Assembly: GCA_002068415.1 (NCBI GenBank)
Contig: MVZM01000003.1
Coordinates: forward strand, 40,306-104,305
Direction of reading: 5' to 3'
DNA from: Tenericutes bacterium ADurb.BinA124
Lineage (GTDB): Bacteria; Bacillota_I; Bacilli_A; ML615J-28; CAG-698
Length of the DNA stretch: 64,000 bases
Position numbers and translations under genes: made by a program. This document shows positions 5,431 through 64,000 of the stretch, piece by piece; positions within the stretch are counted from its first letter, which is position 1, and each line of letters starts with the position of its first letter. The notes beneath the pieces are model-generated. The model ran no database searches. It was not told the origin of the DNA and saw nothing but the letters and a program-made list of their open reading frames with translations.

Positions 5431-5456
5431 AAAAAGATATTGTTTTTTAAAACAAA

Positions 5457-27555: not shown

Positions 27556-27608
27556 TTAATTCAACTTCTCTACAATCTCAAACCAGTAATAATTTTCTTT
27601 CTACTCCC

Positions 27609-27720
27609 TTTTACCTCACATTCTATTAGATTATGAGTGTCGTTTAACACAAAGGGTGGTCAATTTCAAATTGCTGTTTTCCTTAAAATCTAGTCAATTT
27701 CAGTTTACTATAAACAATTA
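27609..27720. repeat. About 110-bp direct repeat, copy 2.
   Basis: See copy 1. A partial inverted copy (GGTGGTCAATTTCAAGTTGACA) also lies at 27095..27125, and another partial copy (GGTGGTCAATTTTAAGTTGA, reverse complement) at 13445..13470 inside the islet. Confidence 0.75.
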
Positions 27721-27986: not shown

Positions 27987-28011
27987 ATTATTTAAAACTT
28001 TTAGTTCTTCT

Positions 28012-30612: not shown

Positions 30613-30624
30613 CTTGTTCTCCTT

Positions 30625-33902: not shown

Positions 33903-33912
33903 AAACCCTCCT

Positions 33913-43198: not shown

Positions 43199-45037
43199 TT
43201 AGTTCAGTTTAATAATTTTGGCGGTTTTTTTAGGAACATTGACTTTTTTCGAAACAGCGAGCTCATCAATTAAATCAAAGCCTTCTCCCAAATGATAGCT
43301 AATGTCATAATGATTATTATTAACGATGGTTAAGATTTTTTCGTGGTCTTTTTTCCGGGAAAAAGCAAAAACATTATTGCTCGTTGATTCTTCGTAATAT
43401 TGACCATCAACAAAGACTGATAAATGACGAATCTTCCCTAACTTTTGGTACCAATTAAAGAGATCTTGATTGATATGATCCCAATCAATGGTTCTTCGGC
43501 AGAAAGGATCACGGAATCCTTCCATGCCCGTTTCATCACCATAAAAAATAGAAGGTACCCCGGGCAAAGTAAATTGGATGGCCGTTGCCATTTTCAATCT
43601 CCTAACCGCTTCATGATATTCCGCTTCACTCATGTGATAATAAGCTTGTTCTTCTTTACGAAGCTGATCAGGACTGACGGGGGCAAAATTAGTCAATAAA
43701 CGGACAGTGTCATGCGTTCCTAAATGGTTCATCAAACTATCAATGACATGTTTCGGATAATTATTGATTAAATGGCGGATTTGGATGACCAAACCGGTTA
43801 AATTGTCATGCTTGATAAAATCAATGATGGCCTTTTTAAGGGGATAATTCATAACACTGTCGACTTGCTTCCCCCACAAATAACGACGACGCTGATTATA
43901 AGCATGCTTTGTGGAGGCATCTTCCCACACTTCACCGATGACGATGTTTTCCGGGTCATTGGCTTTGACAGCGGCATAGATTTTATCTAAAAAAGTATTA
44001 TCCAGTTCATCAATAACATCCAGCCGCACGCCTTTGGCCCCTTGAGTTAACCACTTATCAAGAACCCCATGCTTCCCCGTAATAAACTGTTGATAATAGG
44101 GATCTTGTTGGTTGACGGCGGGCAGGGTTTTAAATCCCCACCAACAAGCATATTGATTAGGCCAGTTAATGAACTTGTACCAACGGTAATACTTGGAGGC
44201 TCGGGATTGATAAGCACCCAGTTCAGGATAACGCTGGTATTTATTAAAATAAATACTGTCATCGCCGGTGTGGTTATAAACACCGTCAAAGATAATTGCG
44301 ATGCCTTTTTCCTTGGCTTTGGCACATAACAATTGGAAATCAGCTTCCGTTCCCAACATGGAATCAATTTTTCGATAATCACCGGTGTCATATTTATGAT
44401 TGGAAAAAGCTTCAAAAATGGGGTTTAAATAAATCACACCGACATTCAAGGACTGTAAGTAATCGAGTTTCGCAATCACTCCTTGTAAATTCCCCCCAAA
44501 AAAGTCATTGTTCAAAACAACTCCATTAGTGGCTTGAAAATGCGGAACATCACACCAATCATCATGCATGATAGCATGGGGTTTTGGAATGGTTTGCCCA
44601 ACTTTAAAAAAGCGATCAACCATAATTTGGTACATGACTTTCCCTTTAAACCAATTTAATTCACCAATAAAGGCTTGATGAACCAACAATTGCCAAGAAG
44701 TCGGATAATAATCCGTCAAAACACCGTCCAAATCCCGGTTGGAACCAATAAAGTGGGTGCCATAAACATCACAGCATTCAAAATAATACCAATATAAGCC
44801 CTTTTCTGCCAAAGAAAAAGTTACTTGATAAACCTGGTAATTGTTCTCATGGCCCTTTTTTTCTAAACTCAATCTTTTTATCTCTTGATTGCCATCGTCT
44901 TTCACAAGCAAATCTAAATAATAGAATTGATATGTTTCGATGACTAAAACAGTGATTTTAACTTGATCACTGTTTTTTATTGCACCTTGGGGAAATTTGT
45001 ATTTTTCATAAAAAGGATTGAATAAGATGTTTTTCAT
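43199..45037 (-). CDS. GH13 neopullulanase / cyclomaltodextrinase / maltogenic amylase (612 aa, cytoplasmic)
   Basis: N-terminal domain plus GH13 conserved regions (DGVYNH, GVRLDVIDE, EVWE, HDTVR). Confidence 0.85.
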   Translation of the reverse strand: MKNILFNPFYEKYKFPQGAIKNSDQVKITVLVIETYQFYYLDLLVKDDGNQEIKRLSLEKKGHENNYQVYQVTFSLAEKGLYWYYFECCDVYGTHFIGSNRDLDGVLTDYYPTSWQLLVHQAFIGELNWFKGKVMYQIMVDRFFKVGQTIPKPHAIMHDDWCDVPHFQATNGVVLNNDFFGGNLQGVIAKLDYLQSLNVGVIYLNPIFEAFSNHKYDTGDYRKIDSMLGTEADFQLLCAKAKEKGIAIIFDGVYNHTGDDSIYFNKYQRYPELGAYQSRASKYYRWYKFINWPNQYACWWGFKTLPAVNQQDPYYQQFITGKHGVLDKWLTQGAKGVRLDVIDELDNTFLDKIYAAVKANDPENIVIGEVWEDASTKHAYNQRRRYLWGKQVDSVMNYPLKKAIIDFIKHDNLTGLVIQIRHLINNYPKHVIDSLMNHLGTHDTVRLLTNFAPVSPDQLRKEEQAYYHMSEAEYHEAVRRLKMATAIQFTLPGVPSIFYGDETGMEGFRDPFCRRTIDWDHINQDLFNWYQKLGKIRHLSVFVDGQYYEESTSNNVFAFSRKKDHEKILTIVNNNHYDISYHLGEGFDLIDELAVSKKVNVPKKTAKIIKLN

Positions 45038-47445
45038 TTCTTAAATGACCTTAAATGCCAGATGTTTTTCACATATTCATCAATACTGCGATCAGCGGAA
45101 AAAATCCCCGCCTTGGCAATATTAATTAAAGCCATTTGCTGCCATAAACGACGATTTTTGTAGACTTGATCTAAATGATAGTATACTTGCATATAAGAAT
45201 CAAAATCCGCTAAACACATATAAGGATCGGAAACCGGATAACTGCTTAATAAATAACGGGTGATGTTATCGAAACTGCGACCATTAAAACCGCGGTTTAA
45301 ACGATCAACGACTTTCCTGATTAAAGGATTGTTATCAAAATAAGCATGAGGATGATAACCTCTTTTCCATAATGCGACCACTTCTTCCGCTCTCATGCCA
45401 AATAAGAAAATATTATCCGTTCCAACCGCTTCGGTTATTTCCACATTGGCGCCATCAAAGGTGCCAAATGTTAAAGCGCCGTTAATCATAAACTTCATAT
45501 TGCCGGTGCCACTGGCTTCTTTCCCCGCTAAGGAAATCTGCTCACTAACGTCACTAGCCGGAATAATCCGTTCCGCCATCGTAACATTATAGTTTTCTAC
45601 AAACACCACATTCAGTTTTTCCCGAATCAATTGATTCTTAGAAATATCGGTGGCAATAGCGCAAATCAACTCAATGATTTCTTTCGCAACAAAATAGCCC
45701 GGAGCCGCTTTCGCACCAAAAATATAGGTTTGCGGCGTGACATCGGCACTGGGGTTTTCCTCCAGTTCCACTAACAAAGCGACAATTTTAAGAACATTCA
45801 ACAATTGGCGTTTATACTCATGCAGACGCTTGATTTGCACATCAAAGCGGCTTTTCGGGTTCACAACAATCCCGGTTTTCTTAAACAAATATTTCGAAAA
45901 TTCGACTTTATTATAATGTTTAATCAGTTCCAGTTGTTTTAAGACTTCATCATCATCTTGATAGGCTAAGAGTTTCTCTAATTCCTCAGCATTTTGCATG
46001 TAAGCGGTGCCAATTTTATCATTCAAAAGTTCCACCAAACGCGGATTGGCTTGATTGAGCCAGCGACGGTAGGCAATGCCATTGGTGACATTGGTGAATT
46101 TTTCCGGCCAAATTTGTGCAAAGCCTTTAAAGAGATCATTTTTAATAATATCACTATGGAGTTTCGAGACCCCATTTACTTTAAAGGAAGCCACAACCGA
46201 AAGATTAGCCATCCGAATTTCACCATGATGGATGATTGCTAAATCGGCAATGGCCGCATCCGAAAGGACCAACTCGTGACAGTAGTGAATAAATCTTTCA
46301 TTGATTTGTTTTAAAATAATATAAATGCGCGGTAAAAGTTTTTGAATTAATTCTTCCGACCATTTTTCCAAAGCTTCGGACATAACGGTATGGTTAGTAT
46401 AACTAATGGTCTTTTGAACAATTTCCCAGCTTTCCTCATAACTTAAATCATATTCGTCAATTAAAATCCGCATTAATTCAGGGATGCAAAGCGCCGGGTG
46501 GGTATCATTAATGTGAATCGCCACATATTTAGGAAGACTATGAATGTCTCCATAATAGCGTAAGTGATCGGCAACGATGTTTTGCATCGACGCACTAACT
46601 AAAAAATATTGTTGTTTAACCCGTAAGGCTTTACCCTCATAATGATCATCGGAAGGGTAGAGAACTTTCGAAATTAAATCGGCTTCATTATATTCCTTCA
46701 TCGCTTGTGCGTAATCGCCCTGCGAAAACAAATTAAGGTTAAAATCCCTAATGTTACGGCTCCGCCATAAGCGCAAAACACTGATGGCTTCGCTGTTGGC
46801 GCCGGAAACCATCATATCATAAGGCACCGCTTCAATCGCTTTATAATTTTGATAATCATAAATGATTTTATCGCCAACATGTTTTTCAATGACTTCACCG
46901 TTAAACCTAATTTGATAAACTTTATCACCCCGTAAGGTTAACCAAACTTCGCCCCCGGGAAGCCAAACATCGGGCAATTCCGTTTGCCAGCCATTAACAA
47001 TTTTTTGTTTGAACAAACCATATTCATAACGAATCGAAAAGCCCATGGCCGGATAGGCTTGTGAGGCCAAAGCATCTAAAAAGCATGCTCCTAAACGACC
47101 TAAACCGCCATTGCCTAAGCCGGCATCCGGTTCATGTTCGTATAAATCATCCAAAGTATAGCCAATGCTTTCGAGAATGCTGCTAAACTCGTCCACTAAG
47201 CCTAAATTATAAATATTGTTTTTGAAGGACCGCCCCATGAGAAATTCCATGCACAAATAGTAAACTCGTTTCCCTTGGTTTTCTTTTACAATATTGTTAT
47301 AAACGCGCCGTTTTTTTCGTAAAATATCATTTACGGAAACCGCGGAAGCTTTATAAAGCTGTTCAATATTGGCATCCGTCAAGGTCACCCCATACATTTT
47401 TGATAAATTGTCTTCCACAATTTCCCTTAATTCCATTTTATTCAT
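45034..47445 (-). CDS. glgP: Glycogen/maltodextrin phosphorylase (803 aa)
   Basis: PLP-lysine motif EASGTGNMKFMINGA. GT35 family over the whole length. Confidence 0.9.
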   Translation of the reverse strand: MNKMELREIVEDNLSKMYGVTLTDANIEQLYKASAVSVNDILRKKRRVYNNIVKENQGKRVYYLCMEFLMGRSFKNNIYNLGLVDEFSSILESIGYTLDDLYEHEPDAGLGNGGLGRLGACFLDALASQAYPAMGFSIRYEYGLFKQKIVNGWQTELPDVWLPGGEVWLTLRGDKVYQIRFNGEVIEKHVGDKIIYDYQNYKAIEAVPYDMMVSGANSEAISVLRLWRSRNIRDFNLNLFSQGDYAQAMKEYNEADLISKVLYPSDDHYEGKALRVKQQYFLVSASMQNIVADHLRYYGDIHSLPKYVAIHINDTHPALCIPELMRILIDEYDLSYEESWEIVQKTISYTNHTVMSEALEKWSEELIQKLLPRIYIILKQINERFIHYCHELVLSDAAIADLAIIHHGEIRMANLSVVASFKVNGVSKLHSDIIKNDLFKGFAQIWPEKFTNVTNGIAYRRWLNQANPRLVELLNDKIGTAYMQNAEELEKLLAYQDDDEVLKQLELIKHYNKVEFSKYLFKKTGIVVNPKSRFDVQIKRLHEYKRQLLNVLKIVALLVELEENPSADVTPQTYIFGAKAAPGYFVAKEIIELICAIATDISKNQLIREKLNVVFVENYNVTMAERIIPASDVSEQISLAGKEASGTGNMKFMINGALTFGTFDGANVEITEAVGTDNIFLFGMRAEEVVALWKRGYHPHAYFDNNPLIRKVVDRLNRGFNGRSFDNITRYLLSSYPVSDPYMCLADFDSYMQVYYHLDQVYKNRRLWQQMALINIAKAGIFSADRSIDEYVKNIWHLRSFKK

Positions 47446-47470
47446 AATGCCTCCTTGTGGGTAAGTACGA

Positions 47471-48943
47471 TTATCGACGATATACTTTGACCCAATAATT
47501 AATTTTTTTGGCTAGTTGTTCATTCATAGCCGCTTTTTGGACACGCCAAATCCAGTTGCCTCCTAAAAAGGAGGGTCGGTTCATCCGGGCTTCACCTTTC
47601 AAAGCTAAATAATCCTGCATCGGGATGATGGCAATCTCACAAACGGATTTTAAACATTCCAAAATGGCTGTAAAACCCGCCTTTTTTCGATCATTAAGAT
47701 GTAAATAATCCATAAAGTATTGGTAATCTTTAGGGTTTAAACTATCAATCCACGCTTCAATCGGAAGATTATCATGCGTGCCGGTGTAAACAACGGCATT
47801 CTTCACATAGTTATGCGGAGCATATTCACTGTCACTGCGGGCATCAAAGCCGAATTGAAGAATTTTCATGCCCGGATAACCACAGTCATGGAGAAGTTGA
47901 TAAACTTCGGCCGTCAAAAAACCCAAGTCCTCAGCAATAATCTGGACTTCGCCCAAGATTTCTTTGACCTTGGAAAATAATTTCATTCCCGGGCCCTTCA
48001 CCCAATGACCGTTTTCCGCCGTTTTATCCGTGAACGGAACGGAATAATAAGCTTCAAAACCACGAAAATGGTCAATTCGAACGACATCAAACAATTTTAA
48101 ACTTTCCCTGATTCTTTCAATCCACCATTTAAAACCGTCTTTTTCCATCAAGTCATAATTATAAAGCGGATTGCCCCACAATTGACCGGTGATGGCAAAG
48201 TGATCGGGGGGAACCCCGGCCACACTAAGCGGATTCAGTTCTTGGTCCAATTGCCAATACTTAGGATTAGCCCATACATCACTGGAATCATAAGCGACAT
48301 AAATCGGCATATCACCAATGATTTTAATGCCCTTTTCATTGGCATAGTTCTTTAAAGCATGCCATTGTTCAAAGAACTTATATTGGAGAAACATCCAAAA
48401 TTGGATATCTCGCGCATTATCCTTTTGAAAGCGCTTAAGCGCCTTGGGGTCTCTTATTTTTAACTCATAATCCCAAAGATGCCAATTTCCTTCTGGCATA
48501 TGCTCTTTAATGGCCATAAATAAAGCATAATCGGCTAACCACATCTGGTTATCGCTAATAAATTGATTAAATTGATCGTGATTGCTCGCTTTTAAAAAGC
48601 GTTCAAAAGCTAATTTAAGAATCACAAAGCGGTGCTGATACTGAAACGAAAAATCAATACTAGCACTGGGATCTGTTTTTAAAATTTGATATTCGCTTTT
48701 TTTCAGTAATTTCTCTTTACATAATTGATCAAGGTCAATAAAGTAGGGGTTGCCGGCAAAAGCGGAAAAAGTTTGATAGGGTGAATCACCATAAGAAGTT
48801 GGTCCTAAGGGCAAAACTTGCCAATATTTTTGTCCGGCTTTCTTTAAAAAGTCCACAAATTGATAGGCTTCTTTTCCCAAAGTGCCAATTCCATAGGGAT
48901 TGGGTAATGAAGAAATATGTAATAAAAGGCCACTTCCTCGCAT
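47471..48943 (-). CDS. malQ: 4-alpha-glucanotransferase (amylomaltase, GH77). Start chosen at MRGSGLL with RBS GAGGAGG; the track ORF starts 13 codons earlier.
   Basis: LLLHISSLPNPYGIG N-terminus typical of MalQ. The RBS-supported start abuts the glucosidase stop. Confidence 0.85.
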   Translation of the reverse strand: MRGSGLLLHISSLPNPYGIGTLGKEAYQFVDFLKKAGQKYWQVLPLGPTSYGDSPYQTFSAFAGNPYFIDLDQLCKEKLLKKSEYQILKTDPSASIDFSFQYQHRFVILKLAFERFLKASNHDQFNQFISDNQMWLADYALFMAIKEHMPEGNWHLWDYELKIRDPKALKRFQKDNARDIQFWMFLQYKFFEQWHALKNYANEKGIKIIGDMPIYVAYDSSDVWANPKYWQLDQELNPLSVAGVPPDHFAITGQLWGNPLYNYDLMEKDGFKWWIERIRESLKLFDVVRIDHFRGFEAYYSVPFTDKTAENGHWVKGPGMKLFSKVKEILGEVQIIAEDLGFLTAEVYQLLHDCGYPGMKILQFGFDARSDSEYAPHNYVKNAVVYTGTHDNLPIEAWIDSLNPKDYQYFMDYLHLNDRKKAGFTAILECLKSVCEIAIIPMQDYLALKGEARMNRPSFLGGNWIWRVQKAAMNEQLAKKINYWVKVYRR

Positions 48944-48944
48944 G

Positions 48945-50660
48945 TTAATCTTCCTCCTCAATTTGGATAAGCATGGCTTCATAAGGCAATAGGGCGGGAC
49001 TTAACTGTCTTCCCTCATAATTTGCTAATATGATTTTAACTTGTTGATAAGGTATTGACGGTAAAGCCACCGTTTTTTTAGTCATATTAGCAATAACCAA
49101 AAGCCGTTGGTGAGCATAGCTCCTCATATAAGCAAAAAGGTCCGGATGTTCCATCCATAGTCCTTCATAAGTCCCATAAACCAAAACATCACGATATTGA
49201 TCGCTTTTCCGCAACGCAATAATCCTTCGATAGTAAGTAAATATCGATTGGGGATCATTTATTTGCTTCGCCACATTGATTTTATGATAATCACCAATGA
49301 TGTTCCATGGTTTTACCAAAGAAAATCCCCCATCGGCTTGATCACTCCATTGCATCAAACTGCGGGCATTATCCCGTGAAGTGAGGGCCGCCCTGGCTAG
49401 AAAAGCTTGTTCGTCTTGATGATGGCGCTTAACATTGATTTCATATTGGTTAATAATGGAAACATCCCGAAAATCAGCAATTGATTTAAACTCAGGATTG
49501 GTCATGCCAATCTCTTCGCCATTATAAATAAAGGGTGTTCCGCCCATAAAGTAAAGGACGGTCGCCAGCATTTTAGCACTTTCTTGGTGATAATGCTCGG
49601 GATCACCATATTGGGACATCAATCTCGGTTGATCATGATTGAGCCAATAGATAGCATTCCAGCCTTGTCCATATAAGCCGGTTTGCCATTTGTGGAAAAC
49701 AGCTTTTAATTGCTGCACATCGGTGGACAATTCTTTCTTGCTTTGGGCTCCCCAAGCATTGTTACACCAATTGTGGTCAAAATTAAAGACCATATTCAGT
49801 TCGTGATTCTTAGGATTGGTATAAGCAATCCCCTCGCTAACGGGGGCATTCCCCCCCACTTCACCAATCGTCACAATATTATATTTCGAAAAAACCCGTT
49901 TGTTAAGTAATTTTAAATAATCATGAAGGCGAGGAAGATTGGAATATTTGCTCCAATCCGGTTTATATTCATGATCGGGGAATAAGTCTGAATCCACAAA
50001 TTCAGCCTTCGCTAAGTGGGAAATGGCATCAATACGAAAACCGTCAATGCCTTGCTCGCACCACCAAGTGGCCATTTGCACCATTTCCTCTTGGACTTTG
50101 GGGTTTTCCCAATTTAAGTCGGGCATTTTTTTGGAAAAAATTTTCATATAATATTCTTGGGTGCGAACATCAAATTCCCAACAGCTGCCCCCGAAAAAAG
50201 AGGCCCAATTGGTTGGTTCAGTTTGTTGGCCGTCAATTATTCGGGGTTTTTTCCAAATATAATAATCACGATAAGGGTTGTTAAGGGACTTACGACTGGC
50301 TTTAAACCAGGGATGTTCATCCGAAGTGTGGTTTAAAACCAAGTCAATAATGACTTTCATCTGTAATTGGTGAGCACTTTTGATAAGGGAGCGAAGATCC
50401 TTTAAGGTGCCGTATTCCCTTGCAACTCGGTAAAAATTAGCGACATCATAACCATTGTCGTCCATCGGGGAAGTATAAAAAGGACAAATCCAAAGAAGAT
50501 TAACGCCTAAGTGAGCTAGATAAGGAAGTTTCGCAATAATCCCCGGTAAATCACCGATGCCGTCATTATTGCCATCAAAAAAACTGCGTAAATATATTTG
50601 ATAGCCAAAGGCTTCTTTCCACCAATTTTTGTCCATAAGTGCTCCTAAAAAGGAAGACAT
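48945..50660 (-). CDS. GH13 alpha-glucosidase / oligo-1,6-glucosidase (571 aa)
   Basis: GH13_31-type motifs (DLVLNH, GFRIDAI, GEV, HDQPR). Confidence 0.85.
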   Translation of the reverse strand: MSSFLGALMDKNWWKEAFGYQIYLRSFFDGNNDGIGDLPGIIAKLPYLAHLGVNLLWICPFYTSPMDDNGYDVANFYRVAREYGTLKDLRSLIKSAHQLQMKVIIDLVLNHTSDEHPWFKASRKSLNNPYRDYYIWKKPRIIDGQQTEPTNWASFFGGSCWEFDVRTQEYYMKIFSKKMPDLNWENPKVQEEMVQMATWWCEQGIDGFRIDAISHLAKAEFVDSDLFPDHEYKPDWSKYSNLPRLHDYLKLLNKRVFSKYNIVTIGEVGGNAPVSEGIAYTNPKNHELNMVFNFDHNWCNNAWGAQSKKELSTDVQQLKAVFHKWQTGLYGQGWNAIYWLNHDQPRLMSQYGDPEHYHQESAKMLATVLYFMGGTPFIYNGEEIGMTNPEFKSIADFRDVSIINQYEINVKRHHQDEQAFLARAALTSRDNARSLMQWSDQADGGFSLVKPWNIIGDYHKINVAKQINDPQSIFTYYRRIIALRKSDQYRDVLVYGTYEGLWMEHPDLFAYMRSYAHQRLLVIANMTKKTVALPSIPYQQVKIILANYEGRQLSPALLPYEAMLIQIEEED

Positions 50661-50685
50661 GGTGACACCACCATGTCTTTCCTAA

Positions 50686-51741
50686 TTAACCTTTTGTAGC
50701 TCCCGCCGTAATTCCTTGAATGAGGAAGCGTTGGAAAGCCATATATAATAATGTGATTGGCAAGGCAACAATTAAGGCCCCCGCCGCAAAGGTCGTATAA
50801 TTGGCTTTATCCTGACCGGAAATCATCGAGAATAATCCGATTGCTAAAGTCCAAACTTCTTGAATATCACCGGAATAATCCGGGCTGTTTAATAAATAAT
50901 TCGGTAACATATAGTCCATCCATGGAGCCATGAATTGGGAAACCGCCACAAACGAGAGAATCGGCACCGATAAGGGCAAAATAATTTTGGAAAAAATTTG
51001 CCACTTGTTGGCCCCATCGAGCATCGCACTTTCGTCCAGGTCTTTGGGAATCTGTTGCAAATAACCTTTAATAAGCCATAAATTAAAGGGAATAGCACCA
51101 CCGACATAGAGGATGGTTAGGGCCCAGGGCTTATTTAAAAGACCAAAGGTATCGAACAAAGTGAACATAGCAATAAGACCCATGAAGGACGGAAAAGCTT
51201 GGAGAACCAAAATAGTAATTAAGCCAACTTTCTTGCCCTTAAATTTAAAGCGGGCAAAAACATAGGCCGCACCGGTAATAAACAAGACCCCAAAAACCAT
51301 GTTTAAAACGGCAATGGTAATCGTGTTTTTATACCAATACCAGAATTTAGTTTCCGTAAATAATTTTTTGTAATTGTCCCAAGTCATCTTCGAGGGCCAA
51401 AAGGTCGTCGGTAAACCACTCGTCTTCGCAAAGGATGAGCCGACCAAATAAACAATCGGCACAATGACAATCGCCGCCAGCAAAATTAATTCCCCAAAAG
51501 TAAGTAACTTCATGAAGATTTCTTTGACGGAAAAAAATTGTTTCAATCCGCCTTTTTGAACAGCTTTAATGGCCGGAGCCCGAAAACAATGTATTATACC
51601 ATAAATAGGAATTAAAGACCAGAGGGCACCGCGATATCTTGAATAACCTTTCTTCTCATAAACTTCCGCACCAATGGCGTCTTGAGTAAAATAAACCACA
51701 AGCACGAAATAAATTAATAAAATTTTTAAAAATAACGGCAT
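50686..51741 (-). CDS. malG: Maltodextrin ABC transporter permease (MalG-like). Start chosen at MPLFLKIL; the track ORF starts 20 codons earlier.
   Basis: 6-TM permease with an EAA loop. The earlier track start overlaps the malF stop by 59 nt. Confidence 0.75.
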   Translation of the reverse strand: MPLFLKILLIYFVLVVYFTQDAIGAEVYEKKGYSRYRGALWSLIPIYGIIHCFRAPAIKAVQKGGLKQFFSVKEIFMKLLTFGELILLAAIVIVPIVYLVGSSFAKTSGLPTTFWPSKMTWDNYKKLFTETKFWYWYKNTITIAVLNMVFGVLFITGAAYVFARFKFKGKKVGLITILVLQAFPSFMGLIAMFTLFDTFGLLNKPWALTILYVGGAIPFNLWLIKGYLQQIPKDLDESAMLDGANKWQIFSKIILPLSVPILSFVAVSQFMAPWMDYMLPNYLLNSPDYSGDIQEVWTLAIGLFSMISGQDKANYTTFAAGALIVALPITLLYMAFQRFLIQGITAGATKG

Positions 51742-51742
51742 A

Positions 51743-54130
51743 TTAATCCTCCTTAAAGGCTCGAGTGCGGGAATAGTTCCAAGCCGCAATGGAGCCGACA
51801 ATGAGAAAGATGAGAATCGAGAACACCGAGGCCATGTTGTAATACTTCTCGTTAACAGTTAAAGTATACATCCAAGAAATTAAAATATCCGTATCACCCG
51901 CAAAGGCCGTATTATAGCCGTTGTTGGCACCACCTTGGGTAATAAAATAGATAACCCCGAAATTATTGAAATTACCGGAGAAAGTCATAACCAAAAGCGG
52001 AGCAGCGGAATACATCACTAAAGGGAAGGTAATTAGTTTGAATTTTTGGGAACGGTTAGCCCCGTCAATATCTGCCGCCTCATAAAGAGTCCGATCAATG
52101 CCAACCATAATGCCCGTCATTAAGGCCATGAAGTAGGGGAAACCCAACCAAATATTAACTAAAATCAAGACAATCCGAACAAACCATGGGTTATGCGGAT
52201 TGGTAAACCATTGAATGTTTTCATTCCCTAAATAAAAGATTTTCGGTAAACTTCCGGTTAAGAATTCATCAATGGTCTGACCGAGCATGCCCCAGTTTTT
52301 TAAAATATCATAAACGCCTAGGCGTTGCAAGAAGGCATTGACAACCCCGCTTTCATTAAAGAAGTTGGCAAAAACCATCTGGGAAATAATGGCCGGAACC
52401 GCCCACGGCAAAATGAGTAAAGTCCGCCAGAATTTCTTCAAAGGAACCCGTTCTGAATTGATAATAACGGCTTGGAAAAAACCGCCAAAGAAACAAGTTG
52501 CCGTCGAAAAGATAGCCCAAATAACTGTCCATAAGAAGACCCGCCAAAAGATTCTTCCAAAGGGAATGCCGACATTGGAGCCGAAATTAAAGATTAAGAC
52601 AAAATTTTTGAAGCCAACCCAATCGAATAAGCCGACATCGGCGGAATTACCGTTATAGGAAGTAAAGGCAATTAAAAAACCAAATAAAATCGGCATAATG
52701 GAAATAAAGGTTAGCACAAAGAGGGCCGGCATTAAGACGATATATTCGAAGGAAGATTCATACATCTTCTTAAAATATTCACGGTCTTTCACAAACACAT
52801 GATTATTGGCATATTCGTAGCTAGTTTTATAAGCATCATGGATATTCCAAAGATAAATAATCACAAAATATAGTAGTAATAATGTGGAAATTAAACCACG
52901 AATCAACAAATAGGATGAAATATGCCCTTGAATCGGCAAATTGGTTAATACCGAATCACCGATATCAGCAACATCAATCGCTTTTGATAATTTATCAATT
53001 TGGTAATAATCATTTTTAGGGGCTGTCCCTAAAGTGATGATTGACCAAATGCCTTTAAGAAAGAAACCGGCACGGTCATTAAAGAAATTATCGTAGGTTT
53101 TTTCAAAATTCTGTTTAACTTCCGGGTTCATTTCAAAATAAACTCGCAATTTGAATTTTGCAAAATCTTCCGGGGTATTGGTTTTATAGACCTTTTGAAA
53201 GTCAACAAAATATTGCGATAAATACTTCGAAAAAACCGTGGAACGATATTTTCCACCCCGACCTTCCGGATTAAAGAAACCGTAAACACTTGTCTCACTA
53301 TAGAATAAAGCATCGGAAACTTTCGCAATTTTGCTTAAATTAGCCGCTTCCCCGTCGTCTTTCATAATTCGTTCCGTCGTATTAATGATATTATCATAAC
53401 GAAGGGGGCTTAAAACACCGTTTTTATTAACCAAAACCTCAACATAAAATTTTGTATAATCATTATTACGATAGATATTCCCAGTCCGTTCAAGTTGATC
53501 AAAATTAATAATATCATTAGCCGTTAAGATATCATTTTCATCCTTAACATTGATGTAAACAAAACTCGGGTCAGTCGCTGTCCCTTGGTTATATTTATAA
53601 TATTCATCCCCGGCCGGTGATTGATAGCTTGTGAAAATCGGATTGAAGCCTGTTAATGAACTAATGGCAAGATCATCTTCACCGGGAACTAAATCCGAAG
53701 GACGGTCCTTACCCTTATTGGCTTCTAGGGCTTGCAGTTCTTCTGCTAAAACATAGTATTTGTTTTTGCTTCCGGCTTTAATATCCATAGCTAAATATTG
53801 AATCAGCTCTTCCGGAGTAAATTCATTATCTTTATGCTCATTATAAAAGCTATCAAAGGAAGCAATTGCCGGCATGCCGTCAAAACAATCGGCTTTATAG
53901 GAACTAACGAAACGATTAATAAAGTTTTGGTTAAAATCGACACCGGGAACTTTTTCATAAGGAGAATAGCCGGATAGATAACGACTCGTGCCAACTTCAA
54001 TGCCCACAAGAATCCCAAAAAAAGCAAAAAAGAATAAAGCTTTCCAGTATTGGCGATTGAAAACTTGGCCTAAACCCCAAATTATTCCCGAAGCAATGGC
54101 TTTAAGAATGTGAATTATTTTTCCTTTCAC
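51743..54130 (-). CDS. malF: Maltodextrin ABC transporter permease (MalF-like) with a very large (about 450 aa) extracytoplasmic loop between TM2 and TM3. 795 aa.
   Basis: The C-terminal half is a typical MalF-type permease core. The N-terminal half is hydrophilic between TM segments. Confidence 0.7.
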   Translation of the reverse strand: MKGKIIHILKAIASGIIWGLGQVFNRQYWKALFFFAFFGILVGIEVGTSRYLSGYSPYEKVPGVDFNQNFINRFVSSYKADCFDGMPAIASFDSFYNEHKDNEFTPEELIQYLAMDIKAGSKNKYYVLAEELQALEANKGKDRPSDLVPGEDDLAISSLTGFNPIFTSYQSPAGDEYYKYNQGTATDPSFVYINVKDENDILTANDIINFDQLERTGNIYRNNDYTKFYVEVLVNKNGVLSPLRYDNIINTTERIMKDDGEAANLSKIAKVSDALFYSETSVYGFFNPEGRGGKYRSTVFSKYLSQYFVDFQKVYKTNTPEDFAKFKLRVYFEMNPEVKQNFEKTYDNFFNDRAGFFLKGIWSIITLGTAPKNDYYQIDKLSKAIDVADIGDSVLTNLPIQGHISSYLLIRGLISTLLLLYFVIIYLWNIHDAYKTSYEYANNHVFVKDREYFKKMYESSFEYIVLMPALFVLTFISIMPILFGFLIAFTSYNGNSADVGLFDWVGFKNFVLIFNFGSNVGIPFGRIFWRVFLWTVIWAIFSTATCFFGGFFQAVIINSERVPLKKFWRTLLILPWAVPAIISQMVFANFFNESGVVNAFLQRLGVYDILKNWGMLGQTIDEFLTGSLPKIFYLGNENIQWFTNPHNPWFVRIVLILVNIWLGFPYFMALMTGIMVGIDRTLYEAADIDGANRSQKFKLITFPLVMYSAAPLLVMTFSGNFNNFGVIYFITQGGANNGYNTAFAGDTDILISWMYTLTVNEKYYNMASVFSILIFLIVGSIAAWNYSRTRAFKED

Positions 54131-54192
54131 TCTTTACCTCCAAATAAGGAAATAGGTGGCCAATTAAGGCCACCTTATTTCACTTTTGTTCA

Positions 54193-55512
54193 TTAAGATG
54201 CCATATCTCGACTGGCTTTATAAGCTTTTTCAGCCGTAAATGCTTCTGTCGCAATTACTCCATCAGCGTTCCAAATGTTTTTCATCATGGACTCCGCCGG
54301 ACCCCAATAATAAGTTACTTCTGGAATCGTTGGCATCGGTACGGAAGTCGATAATTGATCCAACATGACGGAAATTAATTTATCATCTTTAATACCGGTA
54401 ATAGTTGCTAAGATTTCATCTTTTAAAGCTGGGCAATCGCCCGAAGTACGATAGAGGATTTCAGCGGCTTGATCGGTTTGTAAGAACTCCACAAACTTCA
54501 TGGCCGCATCGGCATTTTTAGAATATTTGTAAACGGAAACCATTTGCGCACCAGCAAAGGTTTTTGGATTAACACCGTTGATGGAAGGAAGCGTAATATT
54601 TCCTAAATCAATTCCGGCCTTAAGGTATTGCGGAACATTCCATGGTCCAGTCAAAATAAAGGGTAATTTTCCTTCTTCAAACAAAGTTGAACCGTTGATG
54701 GAGTTGTGTGTTCCTGTTCCCGTTACTTCCGGTTTTAAATTATTGATCATCCATTCCATAGCACGGAGGGATTTTGGATCTTCAAAGCCCACTTGAGTCG
54801 CATCATTGAGATTCGGTCCAAACGGTGTCCAGCCAAACGCTCCATAAAAGCCTTGCAAGAAATAAGCATCCGCCCAGTGTGAGCCGGTAGCAAAATATCG
54901 TTGTCCTTCGTGAGCAGCTCGATAAGCAGCCGAATCAGCTAAAAAATCTTCAAAGGTTTTCGGTAAATCAGCTTCTTGAACTAAAGCTTTGTTGTAGTAA
55001 ATGGTGACTGATTCAATCGAAATTGGGACCGCAAAGAGTCGTTGCTCGGCCCCGGCAGCACATTCAAAGCTACCAGTTTCATCATCGTAACATAATGTCG
55101 CAATATTTAAAGCAACCGGGATAATCCGTTTTTCCAAACGCGTCTTCAAAGCATCCGGCAAAACATAAACTAAGTCATCTAAGATGGCTTGAGCCATATG
55201 GTCATGCGGGAATTGGAAGACATCGGCACCTTTACCGGATTTACCATAGGTTTTTAATTTTTCGCGAATATCAACCGTTCCCATGTGTTGGAATTCAACC
55301 TTAATGCCCGGATTTAATTTTTCAAAAGCCGGGATGATTTCATCCATAAAAACACCTTCACTGTCATCCATCCACACACGAATGACTTGAGCTTTAACTT
55401 GGGTTTCATCAAACTTGATTACTTCTCCGGTTGTCGCGGTGGTTTGTTCCGAGCAACCGACAATCATTAACATTAAAACAAATACGGAAATGATGCTTAA
55501 TAATTTTTTCAT
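54193..55512 (-). CDS. malE: Maltodextrin-binding lipoprotein (MalE-like)
   Basis: Lipobox MIVGCSEQ. SBP family 1. Confidence 0.8.
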   Translation of the reverse strand: MKKLLSIISVFVLMLMIVGCSEQTTATTGEVIKFDETQVKAQVIRVWMDDSEGVFMDEIIPAFEKLNPGIKVEFQHMGTVDIREKLKTYGKSGKGADVFQFPHDHMAQAILDDLVYVLPDALKTRLEKRIIPVALNIATLCYDDETGSFECAAGAEQRLFAVPISIESVTIYYNKALVQEADLPKTFEDFLADSAAYRAAHEGQRYFATGSHWADAYFLQGFYGAFGWTPFGPNLNDATQVGFEDPKSLRAMEWMINNLKPEVTGTGTHNSINGSTLFEEGKLPFILTGPWNVPQYLKAGIDLGNITLPSINGVNPKTFAGAQMVSVYKYSKNADAAMKFVEFLQTDQAAEILYRTSGDCPALKDEILATITGIKDDKLISVMLDQLSTSVPMPTIPEVTYYWGPAESMMKNIWNADGVIATEAFTAEKAYKASRDMAS

Positions 55513-55530
55513 TTTCTTTCTCCTTTCCGC

Positions 55531-57951
55531 TTACGCATATCTTCTTCTTCTAAAGAAGAAAACTAATCCTAATAATCCGAACCCGACCATAGCACTAGCA
55601 CTGTTGGCTTTGCAGCCTTTTTCCGGTGCAACAACGGTAATCGTAAAATCTAATTGCCCAACATTACCCCATTCATCAACAACTTCCAATCTAATTGGGT
55701 AATCGCCGACTTTATTCGTATCTAGGGTTCCATGTCCCTTCGCCACATAAACTTTCGGTGTAAGGTTAGCATCGCGATTGTCCGTAACGCGATAAACCGG
55801 GAAGAGGGATTGATCCCATTTAGCGCCCAAAGCAACCGTAATCGCGGCATCCGGATCAACTAAAGCAATCACCGGTTTTTCTTTATCTAAGTCTAAAGCA
55901 ATCTCAGCTAATAATTGTTTATCGCCCGTTAAACCGTTGTTGAAGTGCAAGGTATAAGCTTTGGTATTGTTTAAGGCATTGGCTTCCGCTAACTGAATAA
56001 CGAATTCATTAGTTGAATCAGCGGTCGTGTTATAGTCAATTTGCGCAATTGGCACAACTGTTGTTCCTTGTTTTAAAGTAAAGTAGGTTTTCAAATCAAT
56101 TAATCCCATAACATCACGAACATATGCCACATCACCATAAACATCGGTGAAAATTACTTCGCCACCAAAAGCAACGGGTGCAAAGTCAATTCGGGATTGG
56201 AAAATCGTTTCCACGGTGACATAGACAAGTTTAACTTGGCCAGCCGTCATGGTTTTGAAACCATCAAGATTACCGGAAGGATGTTTCTTGGTAGCATCAT
56301 CGCCCGCATAAATTAGTAATCCCGGATCTTTAGTGCCATCAGGTGTGAATTGCAATAAGGCGGCTTTGCCTTGGACATTGTCCGGTGACTTAAAGCCATC
56401 CTTAAACACCTTAGCCGGTGTTCCCCAATCGGTTTCCGTAAAGTTTTCCCAGCCATTCCAAGCATGAACGCCGAGGTTTTCTTCATAGGTGCCGGTCTTA
56501 TCAAAGTATAAAACCAAAACATTGGCTTTAGCCGGATCGGCAACATAGTAGGTTTGGAATCCGCCTTGGAAATAGTAGACATGAATAGTGGTCGCAGTTC
56601 CCGCTTTAATGGCGGTAACATCAAAATTGATGTGTTGGCCATCCGGGGTTTCCCGATGATTCCAACGAGCATCACTACCAATTTCGGCACCAATCGGAAT
56701 AATACCGATGGTATCCGCAGCATCATCGTCAATGTTGATTTCCATAACGGCGCCGAAAGCATCGACTCCCGTCATCGCAACTCCATCTTTAGTGCCGTCA
56801 GTCCCGGCATTCCAAGTCCATAGTCCTGTTCCCGTATAGTTTCCATCCCATTTTTGGTAATGGAAAACAACGCGCCCTTTTACATTTGCAGGAAGAGCGG
56901 TCGCCTTATAAGCGGGATATTCCGGTAAATCCGTCGGTAATTTCCAGCCGTCTTCACTCGGAACAACTTCAATTTTTTGACCGATTACTTCGTTAACATA
57001 ATAAGTTTCTTCACCGGTTTTTTCTTTCGTAGTCACCGCAATTGATGTTTTAACGAAAATAACCCGTGGATCTTTCGCATAAGTTCCATCAAGAGTTGCT
57101 AAAGCAAAAGGAATAAAGTCAAAGGTAAAGGCGTTATCAACAAATGTTTGACGCTTGTCAACGCCATCATAAACACTGCCGCCCGAAACATAAACGACTT
57201 TGACGGCTCCGGCTTTTAAATCTTTGAAACCTTTAATATCACCGGCCGAAGCATGTTTCTTCGTTTGATCACTGCCGGCATAAATTAAAAAGCCTGGATC
57301 TTTCGTGCCATCGGGAGTAAATTGCAATAAGGCCGCTTTGCCTTGAACATTACCCGGTGACTTAAAGCCATCCGAAAACACCTTAGCGGGAGTTCCCCAA
57401 CTTGGTTCCGTAAAGTTTTCCCATCCGTTCCATGCATGAACGCCTAAGTTATCTTCATATGTTCCCGATGGATCATAGTAAAGAACGATAACATTGACTT
57501 TAGCAGGATCAGCAAGATAGTAAGTTTGGTATCCGCCTTGGAAATAATAAACATGGAGTTCATTAACGGTTCCATTCTTTAAAGCAGTCACATTAAACTT
57601 AATGTGATAGCCATCCGGTGTTTCCCGAGAATCCCAACGCGAATCCAAAGTAATGTCTTTCCGAAGGGGAATTAAGCCAATTTCATCATCAGCGTCGGAC
57701 ATAACATTAATTTCATAAACACCACCAAAAGCATCCGTAACAGTACTTGTTACGGCACTACTGGTTCCTCCCGTTCCGGTTCCCCATGTCCATAAACCGG
57801 AGCTTGAATAATCCCCATCCCATAATTGGTAATGGAAGACCACTTTTCCAGCTGCCGTCGGTTCAGCAGCATTAATTTTCGTATCAATTGTGAAAAAGAG
57901 CGTTAATAAAGCAAGGATTGATACGAAAAGTACGATCAGATTTTTCTTCAT
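55531..57951 (-). CDS. Cell-surface starch-binding protein with two tandem about 300-aa modules, each with a CBM41/pullulanase-associated-like domain (VVFHYQxWDG...GLWTW). Signal peptide from MKKNLIVLF (RBS AAGGAGG). C-terminal GC-TM-RRRR tail.
   Basis: Internal protein and DNA-level tandem duplication (about 56280..56560 versus about 57250..57560). CBM41-like motif shared with the pullulanase N-terminus. Start refined from the track ORF start at 58002. Confidence 0.6.
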   Translation of the reverse strand: MKKNLIVLFVSILALLTLFFTIDTKINAAEPTAAGKVVFHYQLWDGDYSSSGLWTWGTGTGGTSSAVTSTVTDAFGGVYEINVMSDADDEIGLIPLRKDITLDSRWDSRETPDGYHIKFNVTALKNGTVNELHVYYFQGGYQTYYLADPAKVNVIVLYYDPSGTYEDNLGVHAWNGWENFTEPSWGTPAKVFSDGFKSPGNVQGKAALLQFTPDGTKDPGFLIYAGSDQTKKHASAGDIKGFKDLKAGAVKVVYVSGGSVYDGVDKRQTFVDNAFTFDFIPFALATLDGTYAKDPRVIFVKTSIAVTTKEKTGEETYYVNEVIGQKIEVVPSEDGWKLPTDLPEYPAYKATALPANVKGRVVFHYQKWDGNYTGTGLWTWNAGTDGTKDGVAMTGVDAFGAVMEINIDDDAADTIGIIPIGAEIGSDARWNHRETPDGQHINFDVTAIKAGTATTIHVYYFQGGFQTYYVADPAKANVLVLYFDKTGTYEENLGVHAWNGWENFTETDWGTPAKVFKDGFKSPDNVQGKAALLQFTPDGTKDPGLLIYAGDDATKKHPSGNLDGFKTMTAGQVKLVYVTVETIFQSRIDFAPVAFGGEVIFTDVYGDVAYVRDVMGLIDLKTYFTLKQGTTVVPIAQIDYNTTADSTNEFVIQLAEANALNNTKAYTLHFNNGLTGDKQLLAEIALDLDKEKPVIALVDPDAAITVALGAKWDQSLFPVYRVTDNRDANLTPKVYVAKGHGTLDTNKVGDYPIRLEVVDEWGNVGQLDFTITVVAPEKGCKANSASAMVGFGLLGLVFFFRRRRYA

Positions 57952-58033
57952 TTTTTCCTCCTTGAAAAAAAGATAAAAGAGAGTCTTACATAAACTTCTC
58001 ATACATAATTATTTTAACACTTTCTTGTTTTTT

Positions 58034-58047
58034 TGCAAGCGATTTCA
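58034..58047. promoter_or_regulatory. cre-like / LacI-family operator site 1 (TGCAAGCGATTTCA) in the divergent promoter region.
   Basis: Fits the cre consensus WTGNAANCGNWNNCW including flanking T and T. Imperfect palindrome centred on CG. Confidence 0.55.
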
Positions 58048-58120
58048 TTTATGTAATGGTTTTCATAATCAAGAAGTTTTTCTTTCACTTCTTTTCGTTT
58101 AAGAAAACCGTTCTTTTTAA

Positions 58121-58134
58121 TGCAAACGATTTCA
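58121..58134. promoter_or_regulatory. cre-like / LacI-family operator site 2 (TGCAAACGATTTCA).
   Basis: 12 of 14 positions palindromic. Direct repeat of site 1, 87 bp away. Confidence 0.55.
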
Positions 58135-58231
58135 TTTATGGAAACCATTACACATTTTAGGCAATTGAAAATCTTAACATCTTATAGTAAAATAAACTAA
58201 AGCAACAAACAAGTTTTGGGAAAGGATTACT

Positions 58232-61018
58232 ATGAAAAAAAGATTATTAATGATGTTTTTACTGCTGCTTTTGATAATCCCCATCAGCATCGCCGCCGCC
58301 GAAACTAATGTTTCCACCCTCAAAATCCATTATTATCGCTATGGAAACGATTATGATAGGGGTTGGAATATCTGGCTTTGGCCCTTTGGAAGCGAAGGTG
58401 AGCAGATTGATTTTGATAAAAACGAGGGTGTATTTGTACAAGATGACTGGGGAGTGGTGGCAACCGTTGATTTAAGCGCCACCAAGTATCGCAACATCAC
58501 CCAAATCGGTATCATTTTTCGCAGGGGTGCTTGGGCGGAAAAAGATATTGATTTCGACCGCTATATTCAAATACCGACGACAGCCGAAAACGGCCTTTTA
58601 AATGTTTATTTTGTGGAAGGAGATGAAAGAATGGGGTATTCACCAACAGACCAAAGCGGTCCTGACCGCTCCGATAAAATTAAAGCCGCTTTTTTCACAA
58701 ACACCGCCGAAATTGCTTATCAGCTAACAGCACCCTTGAAAGCCGCTGATTTATCATTATATGAAGATGATGTTTTGTTAGCAGCAAGCATTTCACCAAT
58801 GGCCAATACCGGAAAAATTACCTTAACAAAAAACCTTGATTTTTCCAAAAAATATGTGTTAAAAGCCCAATTTCCTTCCGGTCTTAAAAGCTATGATGTC
58901 ACCTTTGACGGTATTTATGACTCCGAGGCTTTTGAAGCCGCCTTTGCTTATGATGGCAATGACCTTGGTGCCCTTGTTACGGGGAATGTAACTAATTTTC
59001 GTTTGTGGGCACCGATTTCCTCAGCTGTAAGCCTTAATTTATATGAAACGGGAACTCCGGCGGCCTTAGGCGGAAGTGATACCAAAATCGCCACTTATCC
59101 AATGACCAAAGATGTTAAAGGCACCTGGAAATATGCCGCCAATCAAAACCTGCATGGCAAATATTATACTTATTCGGTGACCAACGGTTCAAGAACTTTT
59201 GAAACAATTGACCCCTATGCCAAGAGTGCGGGCGTAAACGGCTTAAGAGGCATGGTAGTCGACTTTCCTAAAACCAACCCCACCGGTTTTAAATACCACG
59301 AGCGGCCTAATAATATTGAAAATGCCACCGATGCAATTATTTATGAACTGCATGTGCGCGACTTAACATCCCATTCCAGTTGGAATGGGCCCAAGGAACA
59401 TGCCGGCAAATTCCTCGGTCTAATTGACGAAGGCACTACTTATCAAGGCATCACCACCGGCTTTGACCATATTAAAGAATTAGGCGTAACCCATGTTCAA
59501 CTACTACCCTTCTTTGATTTTGGGGTCGTTGATGAAACAAAACTGAATGAGCCGAAATACCAAGCTAAAGGAATTTTTAACTGGGGCTATATGCCGCTTA
59601 ACTTCAATGTTCCTGAAGGTTCTTATTCTTCCGATCCTTATGACGGCACGAAACGCATCACGGAGTTAAAACAAGTTACTACGGCCTTTACCAAAAATAA
59701 CATCGGTTTAATCATGGATGTGGTTTATAATCATACCGGTTTAAGCGCCGATTCCAATTTTCACTTAATCCTTCCGGGTTATTTCCACCGCCTAACCCCA
59801 ACGGGGGTCTTTTCCAATGGGTCAGGAACCGGTAACGAAACCGCTTCGGAACGCTATATGGTGCGCAAATTTATTGTCGATTCCACCGTTTTTTGGGCCA
59901 CGGAATATAATATTTCCGGATTCCGTTTTGACTTGATGGCTTTACACGATGTGGAAACCATGAAGGCCGTTGTCAGCGCCTTGAAAGCGATTGATCAAAA
60001 CATCTTAATCTACGGTGAACCGTGGAATGGGGGAGCGACCCCGCTTCCTCCTAGCATGGCAGCGGATAAAGTCAATCTCGCCAAGATGCCCGAGGTCGGA
60101 GCTTTCAACGACGAAATCCGCGACGGCATTAGAGGGTCCGTCTTTACCACAGCGGAAGGCGGTTTTGTACAAGGGGGAACTTCACCAAAAATCATGAACC
60201 GCACCAAATACGGTGTTGTTGGTGGTGTGGCTTACCCAGGGCTGGATTTAAAAGATCTTTCTTACCAAACTGTTTGGCATACCCAGCCAAGCAAAACCAT
60301 CAACTATGTCAGCGCCCACGACAATAATACTTTGTACGACAAATTGCGTTTATCCACCACCTATCAACAAAAACAATATCTTGACGAAATGCAAAAACAG
60401 GCCAACGCCATTGTCCTAACTTCACAAGGTGTTCCCTTCCTTCATGCGGGAGTTGAATTTCTACGTTCCAAACCGGATGGCAGCGGCGGTTATGATCACA
60501 ATTCTTATGAGTCGCCGGACAGCGTCAACCAACTCCGTTGGGATTTAAAAGCGGAAGCGTTAAATATGTCAGTCTTTACTTATTACAAAGGATTGATTGC
60601 CTTACGAAAGGCCCATCCGGCCTTCCGAATGGCGACGGCCAAAGAAGTAATTGCTAATGTGAAATTTGTTTATGAAGACAAACCGGGAATTTTGGCCTAC
60701 ACCATTGCCAATTATGCCAATAACGATTCTTGGGGGACGATTCTCGTCATTCATAACAACGGCAATTTCATCCAACTAAAACTGCCCGAAGGTGAAGAAA
60801 CTTGGAATTTAGTCGCCAACGGCAGCCAAGTTGGTGAGGAAACTATTAAATCCTATGCCGGGGGTGCGACCATCAGCGTCCTCGAACATGAAAGCTTAAT
60901 TTTGTATCAAGGCTACCGTGCCAAACCGACGAAACGCGGTTGCTTTGGGGGAGCGGCGATAATGCCTTTAGCCCTCCTCGGTTTAGGTGTTTTGATACTT
61001 AAAAAACGAAAACATTAA
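58232..61018 (+). CDS. pulA: Type I pullulanase (GH13_14) with signal peptide, N-terminal CBM41-like domain and C-terminal GC-TM-KKRKH tail. 928 aa.
   Basis: Signal MKKRLLMMFLLLLLIIPISIAAA. GH13 regions YNHTG, GFRFDLMA, GEPWN, YVSAHDN. Pullulanase-type architecture. Confidence 0.85.
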   Translation: MKKRLLMMFLLLLLIIPISIAAAETNVSTLKIHYYRYGNDYDRGWNIWLWPFGSEGEQIDFDKNEGVFVQDDWGVVATVDLSATKYRNITQIGIIFRRGAWAEKDIDFDRYIQIPTTAENGLLNVYFVEGDERMGYSPTDQSGPDRSDKIKAAFFTNTAEIAYQLTAPLKAADLSLYEDDVLLAASISPMANTGKITLTKNLDFSKKYVLKAQFPSGLKSYDVTFDGIYDSEAFEAAFAYDGNDLGALVTGNVTNFRLWAPISSAVSLNLYETGTPAALGGSDTKIATYPMTKDVKGTWKYAANQNLHGKYYTYSVTNGSRTFETIDPYAKSAGVNGLRGMVVDFPKTNPTGFKYHERPNNIENATDAIIYELHVRDLTSHSSWNGPKEHAGKFLGLIDEGTTYQGITTGFDHIKELGVTHVQLLPFFDFGVVDETKLNEPKYQAKGIFNWGYMPLNFNVPEGSYSSDPYDGTKRITELKQVTTAFTKNNIGLIMDVVYNHTGLSADSNFHLILPGYFHRLTPTGVFSNGSGTGNETASERYMVRKFIVDSTVFWATEYNISGFRFDLMALHDVETMKAVVSALKAIDQNILIYGEPWNGGATPLPPSMAADKVNLAKMPEVGAFNDEIRDGIRGSVFTTAEGGFVQGGTSPKIMNRTKYGVVGGVAYPGLDLKDLSYQTVWHTQPSKTINYVSAHDNNTLYDKLRLSTTYQQKQYLDEMQKQANAIVLTSQGVPFLHAGVEFLRSKPDGSGGYDHNSYESPDSVNQLRWDLKAEALNMSVFTYYKGLIALRKAHPAFRMATAKEVIANVKFVYEDKPGILAYTIANYANNDSWGTILVIHNNGNFIQLKLPEGEETWNLVANGSQVGEETIKSYAGGATISVLEHESLILYQGYRAKPTKRGCFGGAAIMPLALLGLGVLILKKRKH

Positions 61019-63967: not shown

Positions 63968-64000
63968 AAGCTTTCCTCTTTTCTTATCTTCAAGTTTACT

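Follow-up and report, generated by a model that had tools for sequence, protein, structure and literature searches.

The 279-bp gap that separates two divergent transcription units of a starch/maltodextrin locus contains two pairs of operator-like boxes, and these paired boxes are real, far beyond chance. We give about even credence to reading the gap as a two-promoter, four-operator region with two classes of LacI-family operator and two regulators. Each pair consists of a box A (general form TGCAARCGATTTCA) and, 4 nt further on, a box B (class form TGNAAACCATTACA), and the two copies of B are inverted. The region is real but ordinary, a known promoter design with minor variations. All coordinates refer to the window, the whole stretch of 64,000 nt (64 kb) that was analyzed, and the main features are collected in Table 1.

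Table 1. Features of the divergent control region and its flanking genes (L numbers are related loci, described in the text).
Feature	Coordinates	Strand	Description
Maltodextrin operon	43199..57951	-	Same gene order in L081, L082, L083 and L088
Operon promoter, predicted sigma-A	58011..58038	-	-35 TTGCAA (58038..58033), 16-nt spacer, TGt-TAAAAT -10 (58016..58011); consensus scan
Box A1	58034..58047		TGCAAGCGATTTCA; predicted cre/MalR-like LacI-type operator; identical in L081 and L082
Box B1	58052..58065	-	TGTAATGGTTTTCA; predicted MdxR-like LacI-type operator; conserved in L081, L082, L083, L085, L001 and L088
Imperfect inverted repeat/hairpin	58055..58112		Arms 58055-58076 and 58091-58112; includes AAGAAG/CTTCTT
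Box A2	58121..58134		TGCAAACGATTTCA; second predicted cre/MalR-like operator; only in the clade of the window, L081 and L082
Box B2	58139..58152	+	TGGAAACCATTACA; predicted MdxR-like operator
Pullulanase promoter, predicted	58165..58193	+	TTGAAA, 17-nt spacer, TAAAAT; 10/12 matches, consensus scan
Type I pullulanase gene	58232..61018	+	928 aa, secreted; signal peptide, PUD, CBM48 and GH13 domains

The earlier note took the gap for the divergent control region of a starch/maltodextrin locus, and the domain content of the flanking genes bears this out. The named relatives of the pullulanase come from MAGs assigned to uncultured Acholeplasmatales, Mycoplasmatota and 'Bacilli'. In the other direction, the operon encodes a PUD-domain surface protein, a MalE-like binding protein, MalF/MalG-like permeases, a GH13 protein, a GH77 4-alpha-glucanotransferase, a glucan phosphorylase and a further GH13 protein, in that order. 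Translation of the PUD-domain surface protein likely starts at the ATG at 57951, behind the ribosome-binding site AAGGAGG, rather than at the ORF finder's 58002. The operon may extend to a GH9 gene at 40803-43088, whose product (GH9 plus CelD_N, cellulase family) would then close it. The MalF-like permease (51743-54130) is unusually long at 795 aa, with a large N-terminal extension.

Other parts of the window deserve a brief record. Four cyclic-di-GMP genes (GGDEF-EAL twice, PAS-GGDEF-HD-GYP and GGDEF) lie at 3931-8048, 16790-19348 and 39551-40738, a notable load for an Acholeplasmatales-like genome, and one of them comes immediately after the starch operon. RhuM-family and DUF1016 gene fragments sit between housekeeping genes at 13585-13929 and 27085-28725 and suggest remnants of mobile or defense-island DNA. 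A histidine-utilization cluster at 29971-35454 encodes urocanase, histidine ammonia-lyase, an imidazolonepropionase-like amidohydrolase and an FTCD-like protein; no site matching the cre consensus was found in its intergenic regions.

Both box A sequences that the earlier note had picked out are present (Table 1). Each is followed by TTTA and then by a 12-mer, GTAATGGTTTTC at 58053-58064 or GGAAACCATTAC at 58140-58151. The 12-bp inverted repeat described in that note exists, but its two 12-mers match at 11 of 12 positions and not at all 12, the strict reverse complement of GTAATGGTTTTC being GAAAACCATTAC. The symmetric unit is not the 12-mer but the 14-mer TGTAATGGTTTYCA. What had been treated as an accessory repeat is best read as a second class of LacI-type operator made of MdxR-like 14-mers. 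A repeat search returned a direct repeat of 29 nt (86% identity, spacing 87) and an inverted repeat of 17 nt (58052-58068 and 58136-58152, 94% complementary, with 67 nt between the arms).

The claim that A1 and A2 satisfy the cre/LacI-operator consensus holds: both match WTGNAANCGNWNNCW on both strands, and they are conserved in relatives. Box B does not match that consensus (WTGNAANCGNWNNCW or TGWAANCGNTNWCA) and has GG/CC at its center. Besides A1 and A2, the cre consensus occurs at only two further sites in the 64-kb window, both inside ORFs, and no other intergenic cre was found there. Counted by strand, the window has 6 cre matches where 1.63 are expected, a number reached by 1 of 100 shuffles. 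We also trained a weight matrix on boxes from the more distant lineages only (pullulanase identity 69% or less) and scored every position of the window with it; the four boxes took ranks 1, 2, 3 and 5, and a shuffled window is expected to give about 0.3 hits at that score. The outline of box B, TGNAA-N4-TTNCA, is that of a LacI-family operator, and its other-strand reading aligns with box A as TGNAARCSATTWCA.

Two weaker matches lie within genes. The fourth-best match to the matrix, GGCAAACCATTCCA (44585-44598, minus strand), falls within the operon's distal GH13 gene. It may be an internal operator or a chance match, about 0.3 such hits being expected. A loose cre-like sequence, TGGAATCGTTGGCA at 54322-54335, is found towards the 3' end of the MalE-like gene; L081 has kept it (2228-2241), though this may be due to nothing more than coding constraint.

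Orthologous loci with the same gene order were compared from uncultured Acholeplasmatales-like bacteria whose pullulanases are 82% (L081), 77% (L082), 69% (L083/L084), 65% (L085-L087) and 61% (L001/L088) identical to that of the window. When the window is aligned with L081 and L082, the invariant or near-invariant islands are A1-B1, A2-B2, both promoters, the operon leader and the ribosome-binding sites. The stretch that separates the two composites (55-70 nt) cannot be aligned and differs in length, so that the composites are spaced 87 bp apart in the window and 74 and 84 bp apart in L081 and L082. An A-B composite is kept in L083, L085, L001 and L088. It is single in L083, L085, L093 and L096, serving both promoters in L083 and L085, and it takes the form of a compact A-B-A' unit in L001 and L088. 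Across lineages, box A keeps TGCAAG/A and TTTCA, and box B keeps NAAACC and TTACA. The central CG of box A is kept in the window, L081, L082, L001 and L088; the orthologous box of L083, L084, L085, L093 and L096 is TGCAAGCCCTTTCA, without the central CG. In the L085 lineage, one B-like box sits across the pullulanase promoter's spacer and -10, and a second precedes the -10 of the neopullulanase promoter by 14 nt; these positions are repressor-like.

A small rearrangement was seen between two near-identical genomes. A 46-bp block (L001:9470-9520 and L088:9880-9930) differs between the two only in the 4 nt at the center of box B, and the two box B cores are exact reverse complements (TGTAA-ACCA-TTACA and TGTAA-TGGT-TTACA). 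The difference suggests that the short segment between the operator's palindromic arms was inverted.

The position of the boxes relative to the two predicted promoters is regular. The operon promoter is conserved in L081, L082 and L083, and both hexamers of the pullulanase promoter are invariant in the alignment of the window with L081 and L082. A1 overlaps the operon -35, as it does in all lineages compared; relative to the predicted operon start (about 58004, minus strand), its center is at about -36.5. B1 and B2 precede the -35 elements of the operon and the pullulanase gene by 13 nt and 12 nt, respectively, and both are centered at about -54.5 from their respective predicted starts (about 58200, plus strand, for the pullulanase). 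B1 reads TGAAAACCATTACA towards the operon promoter, the reverse complement of TGTAATGGTTTTCA, and in the direction of transcription B1 and B2 both read TGRAAACCATTACA. The 12-mers are therefore inverted because each divergent promoter has one B in the same orientation relative to transcription; judged from its sequence, the inverted repeat is one oriented element used at two divergent promoters. A2 lies outside both promoters, its center being at about -72.5 relative to the predicted start for the pullulanase, and the core of the pullulanase promoter is free of operators in the window clade. We considered A2 as a promoter -35 in its own right and rejected this, as no acceptable -10 lies 16-18 nt away on either strand. 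The earlier note had the cre-like boxes acting on both transcription units. A1 lies over the operon -35, but A2 is off the pullulanase promoter, so a simple repression reading fails there.

The closest counterpart that we found is the apuA promoter of S. suis. It has a -35 of TTGCAA, an MdxR-like site (OM1) 13 bp upstream and a cre (OM2, TGCAAACGTTTTCTT) over the -35, and EMSA indicated binding of ApuR to OM1 and of CcpA to OM2, with some residual cross-binding (PMC3958366). Motifs in similar positions have been described at mdxE of B. subtilis and at lmo2125 of L. monocytogenes (PMC3958366, text and Table S4). The predicted operon promoter of the window shares the TTGCAA -35 and has an MdxR-like box 13 bp upstream and a cre-like box over the -35, and its geometry matches the apuA design almost base for base. 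The cre of apuA is also close to A2 of the window (TGCAAACGATTTCAT), and in both systems the promoter is that of a pullulanase/maltodextrin gene and a LacI-family regulator is linked to the locus (here in relatives). There are differences. The window uses the module twice, at two divergent promoters and with B inverted; its second cre-like box is upstream of B and not over a -35; its B center is GG/CC (TGTAATGGTTTYCA) and not CCGG; and A and B are 18 bp apart from start to start, compared with 21-26 bp at apuA. The host differs as well, being an uncultured Acholeplasmatales-like lineage. The CcpA and/or MalR-type control proposed earlier is broadly right: LacI-family control through a CcpA homolog, a regulator specific to maltodextrin, or both is most likely and matches the architecture that EMSA demonstrated for apuA (PMC3958366).

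Box B is placed like an MdxR-type site and in part resembles one in sequence. B1, taken as (A)TGTAATGGTTTTCA, agrees with the MdxR consensus NTGWWWCCGNTWNCA at 10 of its 12 specified positions, but the CCG core is absent, the center being GG/CC where the consensus has CCG/CG. It is identical at 11 of 14 positions to a predicted MdxR site of S. suis malQ, TGTTACCGTTTTCA (PMC3958366, Table S4). Canonical MdxR-type forms occur in more distant relatives: TGATACCGTTTTCT in L004, GGTAACCGTTATCA in L007 and TGTTAGCGGTTTCA in L114/L115. As with OM1, B lies 11-13 nt upstream of the predicted -35 in several lineages, with its center between -53.5 and -55.5. This geometry holds at three promoters, those of the operon, the pullulanase and an esterase-neopullulanase-lacI operon, the third being seen in L081, L082 and L084. 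Linkage to a regulator is also as for OM1 in the relatives, which have a LacI-family gene near the locus and B-like boxes before its operon.

Box A has two sets of likely counterparts. The MalR operators of S. pneumoniae, CGCAAACGTTTKSG, are known from the divergent malMP/malXCD region and from pulA (PMC4451989). They closely resemble box A, and the two systems share a pair of operators in a divergent control region, LacI-family maltose regulation and a pullulanase gene in the regulon. MalR differs in being a repressor with a single class of operator and no second class at -54.5, and the linked regulator of the window's locus can be assigned only as generic LacI family. The other counterpart is the CcpA cre of the Firmicutes: A1 and A2 fit WTGNAANCGNWNNCW on both strands, and A1 lies over the -35, a frequent location of repressing cre sites. 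Other cre sites activate from upstream of the -35, as at B. subtilis ackA, where the site is centered near -56.5, and the shared point with box B is that a LacI-family site at about -55 can activate. Against a standard cre, the central CG, normally required, is lost from the A boxes of L083 and L085, and the sequences examined give no view of a wider cre regulon. Related loci totaling about 320 kb, a small sample biased to starch loci, have an intergenic cre outside the starch control regions only in L089. Since there is no other intergenic cre in the window or, except in L089, in the related loci, we see no sign of a global cre regulon, though the sample is small. The motif predicted for the 'CcpA homologue' of A. 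laidlawii differs (TTGTAAGNNCTTACAA) and covers only three operons (PMC5138195). The 'malO' of B. subtilis was considered as an analog and rejected, since it is an unrelated TTTCCC-N7-GGGAAA site (PMC8931375). The family assignments of A and B thus mean that each box probably works like the sites named here, as distinct from proven membership.

The earlier note also proposed that the LacI-family regulators be located. Pfam scans of the 49 larger ORFs found no regulator or transcription-factor gene, a CcpA homolog included, in the 64-kb window, but the loci of relatives do carry a LacI-family gene. It is 323-325 aa long, follows the neopullulanase gene in L081, L085, L086, L093-L097 and L113-L115, and, where both genes share a contig, is found about 6-8 kb beyond the pullulanase 3' end. 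The end of the window (63968-64000), compared with L081 12072-12231, corresponds to the -10 (TAAACT) of the promoter of an RDD/GH13/DUF1189 operon, and in relatives the divergent esterase-neopullulanase-LacI operon, with its B-like operator, begins immediately beyond that position. By this comparison, the regulator of the window's locus is probably encoded just outside the window, past 64000.

The DNA-binding domain of the linked regulator is essentially identical between lineages (MKVTIR-IAKKANVSVATVSRAINNKGYV). It is not CcpA (148 bits for TIGR01481, with a cut-off of 442), so a cre would need a second protein. No NCBIfam equivalog was found for it, and its named homologs returned only generic 'LacI family' names. 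The 323-aa form ends where residue 329 of E. coli LacI aligns, without the C-terminal tetramerization segment, and from its sequence the protein looks dimeric. In the closest relatives its own operon is preceded by B-like boxes but by no clear A boxes. Genomes whose regulator is 55% identical (L114/L115) have a single MdxR-type box, TGTTAGCGGTTTCA, between the GH13-GH77 and neopullulanase-lacI genes. Autoregulation has been reported for 72% of LacI-family regulators (PMC4052901), and Acholeplasmatales have been reported to keep a CcpA homolog, HPr kinase and several LacI-type motifs (PMC5138195). In one lineage a TrmB-family sugar-regulator gene occupies the position of the esterase gene (L001 16604-17428, L095 14241-15032 and L113 3444-4250), with an A-B composite upstream of it in L001 and L095.

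We infer the pairing of proteins with boxes, the sign of regulation and the effectors as follows. Class B would be the operator of a maltodextrin-specific LacI-family regulator encoded at the locus; we assign it to the linked regulator because B-like boxes precede that regulator's operon and autoregulation is usual in the family. Bound at -54.5, this protein would most likely recruit or stabilize RNA polymerase when maltodextrin is present, acting positively on both promoters. The activating role is suggested because B occupies the position of the MdxR/ApuR-type site of Firmicutes, where MdxR-type regulators have been described as activators; in E. faecium, MdxR is a positive regulator of mdxABCD-pulA (PMC3737153). 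Class A would be the cre/MalR-type operator of a second LacI-family protein, most likely a CcpA homolog. On A1, that protein would block RNA polymerase at the operon -35 when a preferred sugar is present. Since A2 cannot occlude the pullulanase promoter, it would act through the protein on B2, 4 nt downstream, either interfering or cooperating with it.

The main rival, possible though we think it doubtful, is that one regulator binds all four boxes. They would then be stronger and weaker versions of TGNAARCSATTWCA, occupied by adjacent dimers of a linked MalR-like repressor that maltose or maltodextrin releases, and catabolite repression, if any, would arise elsewhere, for example through inducer exclusion or through an effect of HPr-Ser-P on that repressor. 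With B1 taken as its reverse complement, the four boxes do agree at 11 of 14 positions, and a single matrix from distant lineages finds them all. A functional MalR operator (rokB, CGCAAACCTTTGCA) has a CC center like that of B (PMC4451989), as do the A boxes of L083 and L085, and repression is also suggested by the boxes that several lineages have over a -35 or a -10. However, A and B stay distinct across lineages in the conserved positions given above, and in the closest relatives the boxes before the regulator's own operon are all of the B type. The 17-18 bp between the centers of A and B also departs from the 13, 22 and 32 bp usual for sites of the same protein (PMC4052901), and a repressor would find no operator in the core of the pullulanase promoter in the window clade.

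An unlikely further possibility is that B is a truly asymmetric LacI-family operator with a GG/CC center, whose orientation matters at -54.5, and that A2-B2 is an anti-activation module. In loci with a separate B for each promoter, the reading towards that promoter is always TGNAAACC...TTACA; in those with a single B shared by two promoters, the 4-nt core of B is flipped between the near-identical genomes L001 and L088. If B is asymmetric, a CcpA-like protein on A2 would silence the activator on B2 and would not occlude RNA polymerase.

The earlier note suggested DNA looping between the two sites, and this found no support. A repression loop joining the two composites, about 87 bp apart, and jointly shutting both promoters is very unlikely. 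Two similar composites do lie in one intergenic region, and the spacings in L081 and L082 are near whole helical turns. However, 87 bp is 8.3 turns, the spacing is not conserved, and the same genes are controlled in lineages with a single composite or an A-B-A' unit. Both promoters would lie outside the loop. LacI-type loops involve a tetrameric regulator and helically phased spacing; here the spacing is variable, and the linked regulator stops short of the LacI tetramerization helix.

The AAGAAG...CTTCTT hairpin described between the sites does pair, as part of a larger imperfect inverted repeat, but it is specific to the window and not conserved. The DNA fold z-score of the spacer is -4.3 in the window and -1.1 and -0.7 in L081 and L082, and an Rfam search of the spacer gave only a sub-threshold chance match. 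We rejected it as an RNA or DNA element, with the fold absent from L081 and L082 and both promoters pointing away from it; the hairpin is probably not functional.

Least probable of all, and hardly to be expected, is that B is bound by a regulator of another family or is a functionless remnant of duplication and inversion: a TrmB-family gene does stand beside an A-B composite in L001, L095 and L113, but the closest relatives have the esterase gene at that position (the window ends before it), for which reason we rejected TrmB as the B-binding protein, and B has the LacI-family shape and resembles predicted MdxR sites (TTGTTACCGTTTTCA, PMC3958366; TGTTAGCGGTTTCA); the B core can flip by a small inversion, but the sequence, position and orientation of B are kept while its flanks diverge.

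For purposes other than annotation and regulon reconstruction, the gain is modest. Just three points are unusual: the non-CG operator center, the fixed orientation of B at -54.5 at two divergent promoters, and a cre-like box that lies upstream of a putative activator site and not over a promoter. What results is a map of starch-locus control in an uncultured Acholeplasmatales-like lineage, with two predicted promoters, four predicted operators and a candidate regulator. If the two-regulator reading is right, the MdxR-site plus cre design of Streptococcus, Bacillus and Listeria would extend to wall-less relatives of the Firmicutes.
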